From the IMG/VR virus record IMGVR_UViG_3300029705_000088: a DNA stretch of 64,000 nt. One strand, given 5' to 3'. The notes beneath the pieces were generated by a model, which was given only the letters and a program-made list of their open reading frames with translations, ran no database searches and was not told the DNA's origin. Of the stretch, positions 10,317 through 20,274 are shown piece by piece; position 1 is the stretch's first letter; each line of letters opens with the position of its first letter. The DNA comes from a virus. A program made the translations under genes and the position numbers.

Positions 10317-10393
10317 GGTCTCGTCGTCTAACAGGTCAGTAACACCGGCCCTTCAAGCCGACAATGCGGGTTCAAGTCCCGCCGGGACTACCA
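10317..10393 (+). tRNA. tRNA-Glu-like (anticodon TTC, C at position 33)
   Basis: Glu-like architecture (gtc/gac D-stem). Anticodon stem ccggc/gccga with loop ccttcaa. CCA encoded. An alternative TCA reading was rejected on stem pairing. Confidence 0.45.
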
Positions 10394-10575
10394 CGCGATG
10401 AATTCGCAACTTTCATAAATTCATTGTTTTACTTTCTTTCAAGACCTGAGCAAGTCTGAAAAAGGCTCTCTCTTTCTGGCGGGGAGAAGCGGTCTTCAAT
10501 CCAGTCTCATAAACTGGACTCCGGTGGATCAACACCACCCTCCGCAACCATTAAAAATTATAATAGAAGGTATAT

Positions 10576-10809
10576 ATGCGAAATATTTTAAGTTATGTGC
10601 CTGGAACTCAGTTTAATGGTTTAGAAATTTTGCAATGGGCAAAATTTCAAATAGATCATAAAACTTCACATATGAAACAAGGTGCTTATATTATTAGAAG
10701 ATTTGGAAATATAAAACCAGAAAGGTTATATACAATAACAACTTCTTATCAAAAAACTAGGTTTAGTAAAATATCAAAAAAGCCTTTTGTTCAAAGAGTA
10801 GTAATGTAA
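10576..10809 (+). CDS. hypothetical protein
   Basis: ORF between tRNA clusters. Confidence 0.35.
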   Translation: MRNILSYVPGTQFNGLEILQWAKFQIDHKTSHMKQGAYIIRRFGNIKPERLYTITTSYQKTRFSKISKKPFVQRVVM

Positions 10810-10841
10810 AAATTTTAAAGACACATTCAGCAAACCTCATA

Positions 10842-10914
10842 GCGAGATTAGCTCATTTGGTAGAGCGTCAGACTGATACTCTGAAAGTAATTGGTTCAAG
10901 TCCAATATTTTGCG
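10842..10914 (+). tRNA. tRNA-Ile (anticodon GAT)
   Basis: Acceptor gcgagat/attttgc (with G-U pairs), D-arm gctcatttggtagagc, anticodon loop ctgatac. Flanked by the inverted repeat aagacacatt / aatgtgtctt. Confidence 0.6.
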
Positions 10915-10935
10915 ATTAATGTGTCTTGTTTATAT

Positions 10936-11011
10936 TCCCGGTTAGCTCAGTTGGTAGAGCGCATGACTGTTAATCATGATGTCGCTGGTTCAAGCCCAGC
11001 ACCGGGAGCCA
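10936..11011 (+). tRNA. tRNA-Asn (anticodon GTT)
   Basis: Perfect acceptor tcccggt/accggga, anticodon stem catga/tcatg with loop ctgttaa, CCA encoded. Confidence 0.7.
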
Positions 11012-11105
11012 GTGGGCGGATGATAAAACAAATTAGGTACCGCCAAGAAAAGAAAACAAAAGCCAATGTGTCCTACAGGGCTGAAAGGTTAAAGCCCATT
11101 ATATT

Positions 11106-11178
11106 CCGGTGGTGGAGCAATGGTAGCTTATCGCCCTCATAAGGCGAAGACGACGTTCAAATCGTCCGACCGGGCCCA
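11106..11178 (+). tRNA. tRNA-Met/Ile2 (anticodon CAT)
   Basis: Anticodon stem tcgcc/ggcga is perfect, with loop ctcataa. The acceptor has one mismatch and the T-stem is only 4 bp. Confidence 0.45.
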
Positions 11179-11371
11179 TTTAAAGAACCGCAAACAGGGA
11201 TCCAAATTTATATGATATATGGTGAATTTGGCTGCGGGGAACTACCTTTTCCATATATTTAAATGTATGGAAACAAAAACTATTTCGGCTAAGGAGAGTT
11301 TTTACATCCAAATTTCTTTAAGGTGGATAAAGAAATTCGTTTTTTACTCTTTAGCTTCTTATATTTTATAT

Positions 11372-11460
11372 GGAGGGGTGGCTGAGCTGGCTGAAAGCAA
11401 CGGTCTACTAAACCGTCGGAGGGCAACCTCCCGTGGGTTCAAATCCCACCCCCTCCGCCA
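11372..11460 (+). tRNA. tRNA-Ser-like, type II, anticodon ACT as read
   Basis: Perfect acceptor ggagggg/cccctcc, Ser-like D-arm, anticodon stem acggt/accgt with loop ctactaa, long variable arm, CCA encoded. A34 is unusual. Confidence 0.5.
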
Positions 11461-11616
11461 GACACCAAGTGTGAGAAAGTTTAATATAGCTGGTGTATAA
11501 TCAGACGAATTATATGAAAGTGCACAAGTAATATAACAAGTAAACATCTCGTAGTTCAGTTATCAGAGAGTCTTAAAGAGTGATAACTTTTTAATTATTA
11601 TGAAGAGGTAAAACAA

Positions 11617-12762
11617 ATGAATGTAGTAAATTTTGGTAATAATTATCAAATTTATGGTGAAGATGTAAAAACTTATACAAATCTTCCGGCTTTATCTTAT
11701 AATGTTTCTTTTTCTAAAGAAACTGGTTTCTTTCTTTCCAAGAGACCTAATCTTATCCCTAATGAAGAAAAGATTTATGGTTCTCATGACCAGAAAGTTT
11801 GTAAAGTTCTTGCTTCTTTTTCAAGTTTTAACCGCAATCTTGGTCTTATTCTGAGTGGTCAAAAAGGTGTAGGTAAATCCTTATTTGCTAGACTTTTGGC
11901 TGAAAAAGCGCAAAAATGCGGATATCCTGTAATTCTTGTAAATGATTATATCCCTGGTATTGAAGGATTCCTTGCGGCGATTGAGCAGGAAGTCGTAATT
12001 ATTTTTGATGAATTTGAAAAGAATTTTCAAAGCGCAAGTAGAGATGATAATTTTAATCCGCAAGAAGCAATGCTTTCTTTATTTGATGGCATGAATAATG
12101 GTAAGAAATTATTTGTAATTACTTGTAATAATGTAAATTCTCTTAGTTCATATCTTCTTAACAGGCCGGGTAGATTTCATTATCATTTTACAGTTAATGC
12201 TCCAGAAGCAGATGAAATTAGAGAATATCTTACTGATAAGCTTGCGGCAGAATATCATCATTATATTGATGATGTAATTAGATTTTCTAATATTTCTAAT
12301 GTAACCTATGATTTGCTTCGTGCTATTGCGTTTGAACTTAATCAAGGTGAAACTTTTAATGATGCCTTACAGTTTTTAAATATTCGTAGAGATGGTAATG
12401 TATATTATGATATTGTTGCCTATTCTACTACTGGAGAAGTATTTTGCGGTTATCATTATTCTATTGATTTACTTGCTGAAAAATCTGTTATTTATTGTAG
12501 AGGTTTAGCAGATACCTCTTCATTTAAAAATAAGAGATATATTGATATAGAAATTGATATCAGTGATTTTACTCATGAAAAAAATGGTGGCTTGCGCATT
12601 GATGGTAGTCATATCCGTCCTTGTGTTGATGATGATGACTATTGGGGAATGGATAAAGAAGTTGCTAAACGAGAAAAAGAAAAAGATAGTAAAAGAGAGT
12701 TTGAATATATAATTTTAAATCGTTGCGATACTTATGAAAATAAAACTTTTAAAGCGGTTTAA
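11617..12762 (+). CDS. AAA+/P-loop ATPase
   Basis: Walker A GQKGVGKS and Walker B VVIIFDEFE. Confidence 0.55.
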   Translation: MNVVNFGNNYQIYGEDVKTYTNLPALSYNVSFSKETGFFLSKRPNLIPNEEKIYGSHDQKVCKVLASFSSFNRNLGLILSGQKGVGKSLFARLLAEKAQKCGYPVILVNDYIPGIEGFLAAIEQEVVIIFDEFEKNFQSASRDDNFNPQEAMLSLFDGMNNGKKLFVITCNNVNSLSSYLLNRPGRFHYHFTVNAPEADEIREYLTDKLAAEYHHYIDDVIRFSNISNVTYDLLRAIAFELNQGETFNDALQFLNIRRDGNVYYDIVAYSTTGEVFCGYHYSIDLLAEKSVIYCRGLADTSSFKNKRYIDIEIDISDFTHEKNGGLRIDGSHIRPCVDDDDYWGMDKEVAKREKEKDSKREFEYIILNRCDTYENKTFKAV

Positions 12763-12784
12763 TTGGGGATTAATTTCCCCTTAT

Positions 12785-12862
12785 GGTGTCCTTGGTCTAG
12801 TTGGTTAAGACGCTTGATTGTGGTTCAAGAAATCATGAGTTCAAATCTCATAGGATACCCCA
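12785..12862 (+). tRNA. tRNA-His (anticodon GTG) with genomically encoded G-1
   Basis: Acceptor gtgtcct/aggatac, extra 5' G opposite discriminator C, D-stem gtct/agac, anticodon stem cttga/tcaag with loop ttgtggt, CCA encoded. Confidence 0.65.
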
Positions 12863-19091: not shown

Positions 19092-19094
19092 AAT

Positions 19095-19135
19095 TTGACA
19101 ATTTAATAAAAATATGTTATAATATATATATAAAA
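19095..19135 (+). promoter_or_regulatory. conserved phage promoter
   Basis: TTGACA at 19095, TATAAT at 19118. Precedes the CUA tRNA. Confidence 0.55.
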
Positions 19136-19203
19136 TAAAAAAAGATTTTAACAGCAATAAAAAAGGACCGATGAATCCAAACAAATAAATCTTGATATTT
19201 TAT

Positions 19204-19297
19204 AGCCCCGTAGTTTAACGGCAAAACACCGGACTCTAAATCCGCAATAAGTCCTGTTCTGAGCAGGCAGTTCTGGGTTCAAATCCCAGCGGGGCCG
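19204..19297 (+). tRNA. putative amber-suppressor tRNA (anticodon CTA, reads UAG), with unusually long variable region
   Basis: D-stem gttt/aaac, anticodon stem ccgga/tccg(c) with loop ctctaaa, about 27-nt variable region containing the hairpin cctg-ttctgag-cagg, T-arm ctggg-ttcaaat-cccag, acceptor agccccg/cggggcc with a 1-72 mismatch. No encoded CCA. Confidence 0.5.
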
Positions 19298-19451
19298 CGG
19301 ATATAATACTTCCTCCTCCTCGTGGTATATCTGGATTGCGCTAAATGGAAGTAAAATTTTAGACCTTATACAGCAATTTTTACATATACATATACATATA
19401 TAATAGATTGAAGATATTAGTATAATAAAAGGTCTAGTTTATAATTTTTAT

Positions 19452-19495
19452 TTGAAAATTATAAAAAAATATGATATAATATATATAGAAAATTA
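19452..19495 (+). promoter_or_regulatory. conserved phage promoter
   Basis: TTGAAA at 19452, TATAAT at 19475. Confidence 0.55.
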
Positions 19496-19576
19496 AAAAG
19501 ACGTAAACCGCAATTATTTTTACTTTCTTACTTTCTGCTAAAAAGTTATATAAGAATAAGCGTCTTGTGAAAATAT

Positions 19577-19664
19577 GCTCGGGTGGCGGAACTGGCAGAC
19601 GCCTTGGACTTAAAATCCAATGTTCATTATGAGCGTACGGGTTCAAATCCCGTTCCGAGCACCA
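19577..19664 (+). tRNA. tRNA-Leu (anticodon TAA), type II
   Basis: Acceptor gctcggg/tccgagc, anticodon stem ttgga/tccaa with loop cttaaaa, long variable arm, CCA encoded. Confidence 0.6.
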
Positions 19665-19691
19665 ATTCAATATCCAGAAGGAGAGAAAATT

Positions 19692-19994
19692 ATGTCTAGG
19701 TCATATAAACATACTCCCCGTTCTGGGGATACTAAAAGTCGTGATATGAAACGAGCGGCAAATCGCAAATTTCGTAGAAATAAAAATTATGATGAAACAT
19801 TACATCATAAACAATATCGTAAATATTTTTGCTCTTATGATATATGTGATTATGAGACTATTGGAGAAACATTTGAAGAATATTATCAAAGAATAGTAAA
19901 TAATTGGTATAGATGGGAGCAATATTATAATATTCCTTTTCCTAATAAAGAACAAGCTAAAAAAGATTATGATAAATGGTTTATTAGAAAATAA
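19692..19994 (+). CDS. hypothetical basic protein
   Basis: ATG at 19692 with RBS ggagag. The ORF-track start at 19620 overlaps a tRNA and was rejected. Confidence 0.4.
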   Translation: MSRSYKHTPRSGDTKSRDMKRAANRKFRRNKNYDETLHHKQYRKYFCSYDICDYETIGETFEEYYQRIVNNWYRWEQYYNIPFPNKEQAKKDYDKWFIRK

Positions 19995-20048
19995 ATCAAT
20001 TCATATAAATTCCCTTTCTTTAATTTCTTGCGGGTTTATCCCGCATAT

Positions 20049-20125
20049 GCGGTAGTAGCTCAATTGGCTAGAGTATCTGCCTTCCAAGCAGAGGGTTGCG
20101 AGTTCAATTCTCGTCTATCGCTCCA
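20049..20125 (+). tRNA. tRNA-Gly (anticodon TCC)
   Basis: Acceptor gcggtag/ctatcgc, anticodon stem tctgc/gcaga with loop cttccaa, CCA encoded. Confidence 0.65.
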
Positions 20126-20197
20126 GATAAGGTTATCAAACACCTTTTTAAGTTTGGTGCGCAAGTGACTTAATAATGCGCATAACATTTGTCACAT

Positions 20198-20274
20198 GAG
20201 GGTGTAGCTCAGCTGGCAGAGCATTTGACTTTTAATCAAAGGGTCGTAGAGTTCAAATCTCACCACTCTCACCA
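20198..20274 (+). tRNA. tRNA-Lys-like (anticodon TTT), weak T-stem
   Basis: Acceptor gagggtg/cactctc, anticodon stem tttga/tcaaa with loop cttttaa, CCA encoded. T-stem has only 3 bp. Confidence 0.45.

Follow-up and report, generated by a model that had tools for sequence, protein, structure and literature searches.

Structural departures among the tRNA genes of a TAG-recoding gut phage and their recurrence in viral contigs

Can tRNA genes that break with near-universal structural rules still serve translation in the ordinary way? This question is raised by a tRNA gene array of about 13 kb in a 64,000-nucleotide (nt) stretch of viral DNA (IMG/VR record IMGVR_UViG_3300029705_000088; the whole stretch is referred to here as the window), of which the studied interval, 10317-20274, is the core. 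An initial annotation had pointed to tRNAs with C instead of U at position 33, a short-variable-loop tRNA with anticodon UAG, tRNA-Ile(UAU), and a Ser-like tRNA with A34, and had attributed them either to loops shifted by one nucleotide in hand-folding or to genuine departures from canonical identity rules. Comparison with other viral sequences suggests that these genes are probably functional, recurrent phage tRNA variants with standard decoding. The proposed departure stands for structure (U33, the Leu arm, and A34) and is not supported for identity or decoding, as judged from alignment columns with CTA, ATA, and AGT codons. Three structural departures are retained in divergent relatives, namely, C33 in tRNA-Ser(UGA), A34 in tRNA-Ser(ACU), and the type I tRNA(UAG). 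Nor are the oddities peculiar to this phage: C33, type I tRNA(UAG), tRNA-Ile(UAU), and tRNA-Ser(ACU) recur across unrelated viral contigs.

ARAGORN called 23 tRNA genes at positions 7896 to 20274, all on the + strand. The Rfam tRNA model recovered 22 of these, with Infernal RF00005 scores of 44.7 to 75.2 bits (gathering score, 29), plus an extra match at 9522-9586. U33 is present in 20 of the 23 genes, and the remaining three have C33. The T loop contains U54-U55-C56 in every gene except those at 14614-14690 and 15733-15807 (C55) and at 10478-10550 (A54), and the CCA end is genome-encoded in nearly all array tRNAs. Viral contigs used for comparison carry L numbers; L001 to L127 are related to the window, and L128 to L367 include unrelated contigs. 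Identity in a NAGPA/SPOR protein encoded inside the array places the relatives cited most often: 98% for L125 and L126 (contigs from other studies), 80% for L122, and 68% for L123 (from the Hadza gut). Recurrence counts below are ARAGORN calls made in one anticodon-stem context, and figures given as "at least" refer to the matches listed.

Three anticodon loops with C at position 33

10317-10393, + strand: tRNA-Glu(UUC) with C33, loop CCUUCAA (ARAGORN; Infernal, 44.7 bits)
14614-14690, + strand: second copy of tRNA-Ile(GAU), with C33, loop CCGAUAA (ARAGORN; Infernal, 60.4 bits)
18689-18780, + strand: type II tRNA-Ser(UGA) with C33, loop CCUGAAA (ARAGORN; Infernal, 48.9 bits)

The ARAGORN cloverleaves and the Infernal RF00005 alignments share the register in which C at position 33 had originally been noted. 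Automated folding placed U33 in none of the loops, and all three loci score above the tRNA model threshold (29 bits). With two automated methods giving the same register, the suspicion of a one-nucleotide shift in hand-folding can be dropped. The accompanying description of perfect 5-bp anticodon stems is correct for Ile and Ser and incorrect for Glu, in which 4 bp are joined by a C27.A43 mismatch. That C33 reflects misregistered loops or an error of sequencing or assembly is exceedingly improbable. We found no alternative 7-nt loop with U at its second position and a paired stem, and C33 is also present in diverged relatives. Furthermore, 16 loci from other assemblies (JGI, ENA, and Logan) are 100% identical to the window where they cover positions 1617 to 24410 (one is 99.98% identical), and identity among 16 independent assemblies excludes assembly error.

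Another explanation is neutral decay, that is, early pseudogenization in a redundant array in which host tRNAs do the work and selection is weak. C33 arises repeatedly among U33 relatives, as a tolerated, slightly deleterious change would. We nevertheless regard decay as an unlikely account of these genes, and tRNA-Ser(UGA) provides much of the evidence. The gene at 18689-18780 is the sole Ser(UGA) in the window, and of 79 viral loci having C33 Ser, none carries a second Ser(UGA) with U33. Acceptor stem and C33 loop are both unchanged in the Ser(UGA) of L123, even though four of the five anticodon-stem pairs are changed on both sides, and that of L062 likewise has C33. Viral contigs hold at least 51 unique C33 Ser(UGA) sequences, with a median identity of 44% outside the searched 15-mer; these are interspersed with U33 forms, yet no 90%-identity cluster mixes the two states.

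The distribution of C33 beyond Ser(UGA) bears on the same point. U33 accounts for 93% and C33 for 3.3% of 334 unique tRNAs from related loci, and a scan of viral contigs with one Ser(UGA) anticodon arm and a pyrimidine (Y) at position 33 gave 5 C33 versus 59 U33 sequences (7.8%) among the matches listed. Loci with a C33 Ser have C33 in 41 of 504 other tRNAs (8.1%) versus 13 of 610 (2.1%) where the Ser carries U33 (Fisher p = 4e-6, with contigs counted regardless of kinship). Such clustering by phage is not predicted by independent decay, although shared ancestry could contribute. Overall, C33 makes up roughly 2 to 8% of viral-contig tRNAs and is clustered in particular phages. When bacterial genome contigs were scanned with the C33 arm, 8 of 120 listed matches fell in tRNAs, and four of these eight belonged to loci that hold three to eight tRNAs and look phage-derived; C33 was found in 4 of 30 other genomic tRNAs of those loci, a set too noisy for use.

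Eukaryotic cytoplasmic initiator tRNA-Met is functional with C33. By analogy, the phage tRNAs would probably still decode, as C33 keeps the pyrimidine of the U-turn. The initiator enters the P site directly, whereas the phage C33 tRNAs are elongators (Glu, Ile, and Ser).

Leucine, serine, and isoleucine tRNAs and the meaning of their codons

7896-7972, + strand: type I tRNA(UAG), 77 nt, 5-nt variable loop (ARAGORN; Rfam, 64.7 bits)
11372-11460, + strand: type II tRNA-Ser(ACU) with A34 (ARAGORN; Rfam, 56.6 bits)
13013-13088, + strand: tRNA-Ile(UAU) (ARAGORN; Rfam, 49 bits)
9928-10002, + strand: tRNA-Lys(UUU), copy 1, AU-rich acceptor stem (ARAGORN; Rfam, 71.1 bits)
20198-20274, + strand: tRNA-Lys(UUU), copy 2, body unrelated to copy 1 (ARAGORN; Rfam, 62.1 bits)

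ARAGORN and Rfam agree with the initial annotation on each of these: the short-variable-loop tRNA with anticodon TAG at its original coordinates, the Ser-like tRNA with ACT, the TAT anticodon at 13013-13088, and the two tRNA-Lys(UUU) genes. Two Lys(UUU) copies were found in 4 of 43 viral loci.

The tRNA(UAG) at 7896-7972 carries G37, A73, C2-G71 (which blocks SerRS), and an encoded CCA end. Its D arm is of the Leu type (3-bp stem, 11-nt loop, and A14) and matches those of the type II Leu tRNAs in the window and in L123, but the long variable arm present in the window's Leu(CAA) and Leu(UAA) is missing. The identical sequence occurs in L122. In L123, a normal type II Leu(UAG) has a closely similar T arm and acceptor stem, and by this resemblance the short tRNA(UAG) looks like the product of a variable-arm deletion of about 8 nt. 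Six distinct type I tRNA(UAG) sequences show 97.5% paired cells, with double changes at 8 of 20 pairs; none of 500 shuffles scored as high. Compensatory evolution of this kind, seen also for Ser(ACU), speaks against decay. Searching viral contigs for the type I pattern gave 119 listed matches, of which 116 are ARAGORN tRNA(UAG) calls (at least 89 unique sequences); in nearly all, the D loop is of the Leu type, position 37 is G, and the discriminator is A. In a viral sample drawn without regard to Leu, about a third of the tRNA(UAG) genes (14 of 41) measure less than 80 nt, and the cultured Streptomyces phage Sycamore has the same short type of gene, annotated as tRNA-Leu. Short tRNAs (<80 nt) with other Leu anticodons are also common in viral loci (CAA, 14 of 33; UAA, 5 of 32).

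With A73, C2-G71, and the Leu-type D arm kept, the short tRNA(UAG) is most likely charged by LeuRS. Human mitochondrial tRNA-Leu has Leu identity without a long arm, through determinants A73 and A14 (PMC9976931). The phage tRNA shares the short variable loop, A73, and A14 with animal mitochondrial tRNA-Leu; it differs in being of bacterial type with normal D and T arms, and its charging enzyme would be a bacterial LeuRS.

Codon usage was counted over 61 open reading frames (ORFs) of the window and is given per 1,000 codons. AGT (16.7) is 4.3 times commoner than AGC (3.9), and A34 of Ser(ACU) can form a Watson-Crick pair with this prevailing codon. The Ser(ACU) of L122 combines an identical loop with a diverged body, and a broad viral sample contained 5 Ser(ACU) versus 55 Ser(GCU). 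Other A34 tRNAs beyond Arg(ACG) recur in viral loci as well: Leu(AAG), Thr(AGU), Ser(AGA), Cys(ACA), Ile(AAU), Val(AAC), and Asn(AUU), in addition to Ser(ACU). ATA is used at 11.9 per 1,000 codons. In bacteria lacking lysidine synthase, such as Mycoplasma mobile, tRNA-Ile(UAU) reads AUA directly; the anticodon is the same here, whereas the phage gene is accessory and its body is nearest to tRNA-Arg(UCU) in relatives. It carries A73, C29-G41, A37, and A38, the elements listed for bacterial Ile tRNAs in PMC9976931. The gene is identical in L127, and in the broad viral sample 13 of the 45 unique Ile tRNAs with an anticodon other than CAU are Ile(UAU). Each of the four-codon boxes represented in the window has a U34 tRNA. 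The anticodon set thus appears tuned to A/U-rich codons, with UAU for AUA, ACU for AGU, and U34 in the represented four-codon boxes, and the phage tRNAs would work beside those of the host by supplying A/U-rich codons and TAG.

A different proposal is that some of these tRNAs recode sense codons or have switched identity, for example, a non-Leu short tRNA(UAG) or a Ser(ACU) with inosine at position 34 reading AGA. LeuRS and SerRS do not read the anticodon (established background; see also PMC11028032), and anticodon changes on Leu or Ser bodies can therefore reassign codons; in addition, this phage already reassigns TAG, and its clade shows one tRNA body taking different anticodons. The alignments point the other way. 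Codon meaning was assessed from two proteins, each aligned with about 120 homologs, and few informative codons were available. CTA is rare (3.1 per 1,000, versus 25.5 for CTT), and the single CTA codon tested corresponds to Leu in 119 of 119 homologs. Among the ATA columns, 6 of 15 have Ile as their most frequent residue, and 7 of 13 AGT columns likewise have Ser; the others in these two proteins vary, and no single alternative residue recurs. In this small sample no sense-codon recoding was seen, and conserved columns read Leu, Ile, and Ser. The A73, C2-G71, and D arm of the short tRNA(UAG), and the likeness of its T arm and acceptor to the Leu(UAG) of L123, also argue against a non-Leu identity, and we consider recoding of sense codons very improbable.

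Several observations weigh against reading all of these genes as functional variants with standard decoding, and some of them favor decay. The Glu(UUC) with C33, the window's only Glu tRNA, is mismatched in two stems, as its weak D arm has non-standard pairs in addition to the anticodon-stem mismatch. No orthologue with C33 was found for it; the syntenic Glu(UUC) of L122 has U33, and a related Glu(CUC) in L123 has the loop CUCUCAA. This Glu(UUC) may be decaying. The Ile(GAU) with C33 has a cloverleaf that is perfect except for its T loop (UCCGAAU, with C55), and both C33 and C55 are retained in L125 and L126 with one D-loop change. However, its orthologues in relatives with about 50% identity in an AAA ATPase have U33, and the array contains a second Ile(GAU) gene. 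A 27-mer from the C33 arm of 14614-14690 has no exact match in viral contigs. C33 in Glu, and in Ile(GAU) past the immediate strain group, is without a distant counterpart and could be drift. For the short tRNA(UAG), the bacterial Leu identity table includes the large variable region (PMC9976931), and long-arm contacts or orientation effects are reported for the LeuRS of M. tuberculosis and A. aeolicus; charging may therefore be inefficient in some hosts. Finally, for the one anticodon nuclease with position-33 data that we found, the K. lactis gamma-toxin, substrates with C33 and U33 are cleaved equally well (PMC2275089), which means that C33 is not a general escape mutation.

The T loop UCCGAAU, in which C replaces the near-universal U55, occurs in the Ile(GAU) at 14614-14690, in Gln(UUG) at 15733-15807, and in a C33 Val(UAC) of the relative L021 (13732-13807).

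TAG decoding and gene turnover in the array

19204-19298, + strand: tRNA(CUA), amber suppressor with a long variable arm (ARAGORN; Rfam, 53.7 bits)

The initial annotation had also suggested that its listed oddities might achieve recoding. The recoding that does occur, TAG to Gln, is served instead by this tRNA(CUA), which was absent from that list. When TAG is read as sense, long ORFs fill gaps left by the standard code, for example, at 4213-6771 and 16609-17928, in tail-fiber genes at 24030-30679 (- strand), and in an amidase gene at 61438-63069. TAG (3.9 per 1,000 codons) is found in frame in 24 of 61 ORFs, with further cases at 36037-37491 and within 61438-63840, including tail-fiber-like, glycosyltransferase-like, and amidase genes, and many other genes have none, a partial usage of code 15. 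A region with a GC content of 18% (4001-6000) coincides with TAG-rich ORFs at 4213-4743 and 4752-5903 (glycosyltransferase family 2-like). We aligned the 11 in-frame TAGs of the amidase with 120 homologs, and Q dominated; at two invariant TAG columns, Q is present in 117 and 118 of the 120 homologs. TAG therefore encodes Gln (code 15). A tblastn comparison of TAG-containing ORFs with related loci gave too few matches to assign an amino acid to TAG.

TAG is known to encode Gln (code 15) in gut phages (10.1101/2021.08.26.457843; PMC9523058; PMC10607447), and the present array belongs to such a code-15 phage. With Lak, crAss-like, and phAss-1 phages it shares the gut habitat, an AT-rich genome (window GC, ~32%), TAG as Gln in a gene subset (tail-fiber, lysis, and glycosyltransferase-like genes), and a tRNA(CUA) within a large tRNA array. 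Relatives with about 50 to 80% identity in the AAA ATPase and NAGPA/SPOR proteins are contigs of 140 to 200 kb from human-gut and other metagenomes. A megablast search of INPHARED with positions 7800 to 20400 matched only a 56-nt piece of tRNA-Asn, and no close cultured relative was found there.

Within code-15 gut phages, this clade is set apart by a long-armed suppressor (90 to 95 nt). Orthologues of 90 to 91 nt occur in L002 to L009 and in L123 (5819-5909), and in L123 a CCA end fixes the 3' terminus. In other relatives, tRNA(CUA) is 72 to 74 nt long, and all 11 in an unselected viral sample are 71 to 77 nt, which makes the long arm specific to this clade. The tRNA(CUA) of the window has G73 and an A1.C72 mismatch, and its CCA is not encoded. 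Compared with the bacterial Gln identity set (PMC9976931), it has G73, the unpaired A1.C72, G2-C71, G10, and U35; C3-G70 replaces G3-C70, and a long variable arm replaces the type I body. Such a dedicated tRNA(CUA) would decode TAG. Identity as tRNA-Sec or tRNA-Pyl was considered and rejected, since ARAGORN assigns the label "Pyl" from the anticodon alone and tRNA-Sec scores lower than the Rfam tRNA model. Bacterial allo-tRNAs also combine a long variable arm with anticodons of other classes. Nematode nev-tRNAs are V-arm tRNAs with non-Leu/Ser anticodons (PMC3333845). Both kinds are charged with Leu or Ser, whereas here the codon evidence indicates Gln and the acceptor end is Gln-like (G73 and unpaired 1.72).

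Besides intact genes, the array and its upstream edge hold irregular elements:

7422-7504, + strand: tRNA-like element with good acceptor and T arms, CCA, and an irregular anticodon region (relaxed ARAGORN only)
8861-8935, + strand: tRNA-like element with an 8-nt anticodon loop, CAAGGAAC, and no CCA (relaxed ARAGORN only)
9522-9586, + strand: tRNA-like element with loop CAGCAAC (A33, GCA) and a 4-bp acceptor stem (Rfam, 36 bits)
10478-10550, + strand: aberrant tRNA-Met(CAU)-like element with T loop AUCAACA (A54), a 4-nt D loop, and CCA (ARAGORN only)

Decay finds support here, since the elements at 7422-7504, 9522-9586, and 10478-10550 are relics, and the loop of the Asp(GUC) orthologue in L122 is damaged. 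Rfam gave no match for 7422-7504 at E<=1. The irregular structures described earlier were partly borne out. The 8-nt anticodon loop placed at 8868-8933 was correct, and the element was seen by relaxed ARAGORN alone, with the boundaries 8861-8935; it is 97% identical in L122 (1023-1097), inside the best-conserved block of the array. Loops of 8 nt are typical of frameshift-suppressor tRNAs. The loop CAGCAAC assigned to 9517-9580 was likewise correct, and the acceptor stem has only 4 bp; the L122 orthologue has the loop CUUAAAA (UAA) and one compensated stem pair. For 10463-10550, the CAT anticodon, the T loop ATCAACA, and the CCA were recovered, in the shorter ARAGORN call, which lies below the Rfam tRNA thresholds. 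This element is syntenic with a canonical tRNA-Met in L122, and initiator identity was rejected because the three anticodon-stem G-C pairs are missing. No tRNA model supports the acceptor/T-arm minihelix proposed at 13452-13495, where a start-like context (AAAGGAG-N5-ATG) runs into the hairpin.

The T loop AUCAACA/AUCGACA with A54 is common to 10478-10550 and the 73-nt tRNA(CUA) of relatives (L001, 6473-6545, and similar loci), and the anticodon arms of the two are similar (GUCUCAUAAAC at 10478-10550 and GUCUCUAAAAC in the relatives).

Two larger protein genes and interspersed small ORFs share the array with the remaining tRNA genes:

9412-9496, + strand: type II tRNA-Leu(CAA) (ARAGORN; Rfam, 46.8 bits)
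10842-10914, + strand: tRNA-Ile(GAU), copy 1, with U33 and no CCA (ARAGORN; Rfam, 66.2 bits)
10936-11011, + strand: tRNA-Asn(GUU) (ARAGORN; Rfam, 70.1 bits)
11105-11178, + strand: tRNA-Met(CAU) of a conserved phage type (ARAGORN; Rfam, 52.7 bits; 59/74 identical to L006)
11617-12762: AAA ATPase gene, inside the tRNA array
12786-12862, + strand: tRNA-His(GUG) with encoded G-1 and discriminator C73 (ARAGORN and Rfam)
13550-14410: NAGPA/SPOR protein gene, inside the tRNA array
14536-14610, + strand: tRNA-Asp(GUC) (ARAGORN and Rfam)
14809-14884, + strand: tRNA-Pro(UGG) (ARAGORN and Rfam)
15644-15719, + strand: tRNA-Ala(UGC) (ARAGORN and Rfam)
15733-15807, + strand: tRNA-Gln(UUG) with U1-A72, G73, and T loop UCCGAAU (C55) (ARAGORN and Rfam)
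16087-16173, + strand: type II tRNA-Tyr(GUA) (ARAGORN and Rfam)
18146-18220, + strand: tRNA-Thr(UGU) (ARAGORN and Rfam)
19577-19664, + strand: type II tRNA-Leu(UAA) (ARAGORN and Rfam)
20049-20125, + strand: tRNA-Gly(UCC) (ARAGORN and Rfam)

The tRNA body at 10842-10914 (acceptor GCGAGAU, no CCA), with acceptor, D, and T arms in common, has the anticodon GAU here, UUU in L122 (2830-2902), and GUU in more distant relatives (L003, 1285-1358); a single body has switched between the anticodons of Ile, Lys, and Asn. Together with the damaged Asp loop and the Arg-like body of Ile(UAU), such switches mark the array as a fast-evolving mix of working genes, switched copies, and relics. Phage tRNA turnover would thus be fast, through duplication, anticodon switching on one body, and decay.

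ATAT lies directly 5' of 9 of the 23 tRNAs, mostly as TTATAT or TATAT, with about 0.3 occurrences expected from base composition; examples are at 10928-10935, 11097-11104, 15636-15643, 16079-16086, and 18138-18145. The motif may be a processing or promoter signal.

Persistence of the variants and a possible role of tRNA-cleaving defenses

Why should functional variants with standard decoding depart at positions that cells keep invariant? Selection at U33 and at the Leu variable arm may be relaxed or redirected in the phage. The last and least certain step of the mechanism would be that the variants persist by removing handles for tRNA-cleaving defense enzymes of the host or of competitors, an idea that the initial annotation had raised for host anticodon nucleases and that we find reasonable but hold to be possible rather than probable. 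Anticodon-loop changes in phage tRNAs are reported to block anticodon nucleases (PMC10264068; PMC13056530), and the escape idea fits the clustering of C33 by phage, the loss of the Leu arm, and a group of RNA-repair-type genes in the window:

39258-40163: nucleotidyltransferase
40156-40866: calcineurin-like phosphoesterase
42176-43063: RNase T-type exonuclease
43574-44980: RNA ligase
46954-47817: Thg1-like tRNA-His guanylyltransferase

As G-1 of tRNA-His is genome-encoded, the Thg1-like enzyme may instead repair tRNA 5' ends.

The closest parallels are the tRNA arrays of cluster C1 mycobacteriophages and of T5, whose loops differ from those of the host and resist anticodon nucleases (PMC10264068; PMC11555353). 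Those arrays and the present one are large and carry substitutions at conserved loop positions, here with RNA-repair genes nearby. In those systems the host tRNAs and the nucleases are known (VapC, PrrC, PtuAB, and AriB). The position concerned also differs, being U33 itself here; position 33 is not discussed in PMC10264068 or PMC11555353.

A broader version of the escape idea is that phage tRNAs systematically shed or swap invariant features that serve as handles for host defense nucleases: U33, the Leu long arm, the suppressor's short variable loop, and the G34 of split boxes. We find this version doubtful. If true, C33 clustering would mark hosts with a still-unknown tRNase that depends on U33 or the U-turn, and tRNA(CUA), with its long arm, would represent a tRNA architecture new among Gln acceptors.

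Other genes of the window were noted in passing. A NAD salvage/synthesis cluster at 47830-54120 (isochorismatase/nicotinamidase-like, cytidylyltransferase-like, NAPRTase, and NAD synthase) includes a macro-domain protein at 50358-50828 and may counter NAD-depleting defenses. Just upstream of the array, 6990-7097 gave a subthreshold match to YrlA (Y RNA-like; 34.5 bits versus a gathering score of 69), in which a T-arm-like hairpin is followed by a D-arm-like motif. Just downstream, the product of 21804-23321 belongs to DUF2828/DUF7788 (PHROG label, "RNA-binding protein"). At 33329-35740 and 45474-46457, the encoded proteins have domains unusual for a phage, of the major-vault-protein shoulder/repeat and SPFH/Band-7 kinds.

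A full-text literature search found no paper on C33 in phage tRNAs, arm-less Leu tRNAs, A34 in split boxes, or a long-arm amber suppressor. Further work would best begin with the clade-specific long arm of tRNA(CUA) and with the tendency of C33 to cluster. The departures described here are a general, under-described property of phage tRNA genes, of which this window offers an ordinary example and no unique oddity, and labels based on the anticodon alone hide them in phage tRNA annotation. Being conserved and recurrent, they mark "universal" tRNA features that are dispensable within a single infection cycle. They also provide concrete candidates for testing host tRNA-cleaving defenses as shapers of phage tRNAs, and the short Leu tRNAs and long-arm Gln-type suppressors are natural scaffolds with altered recognition surfaces for engineering.

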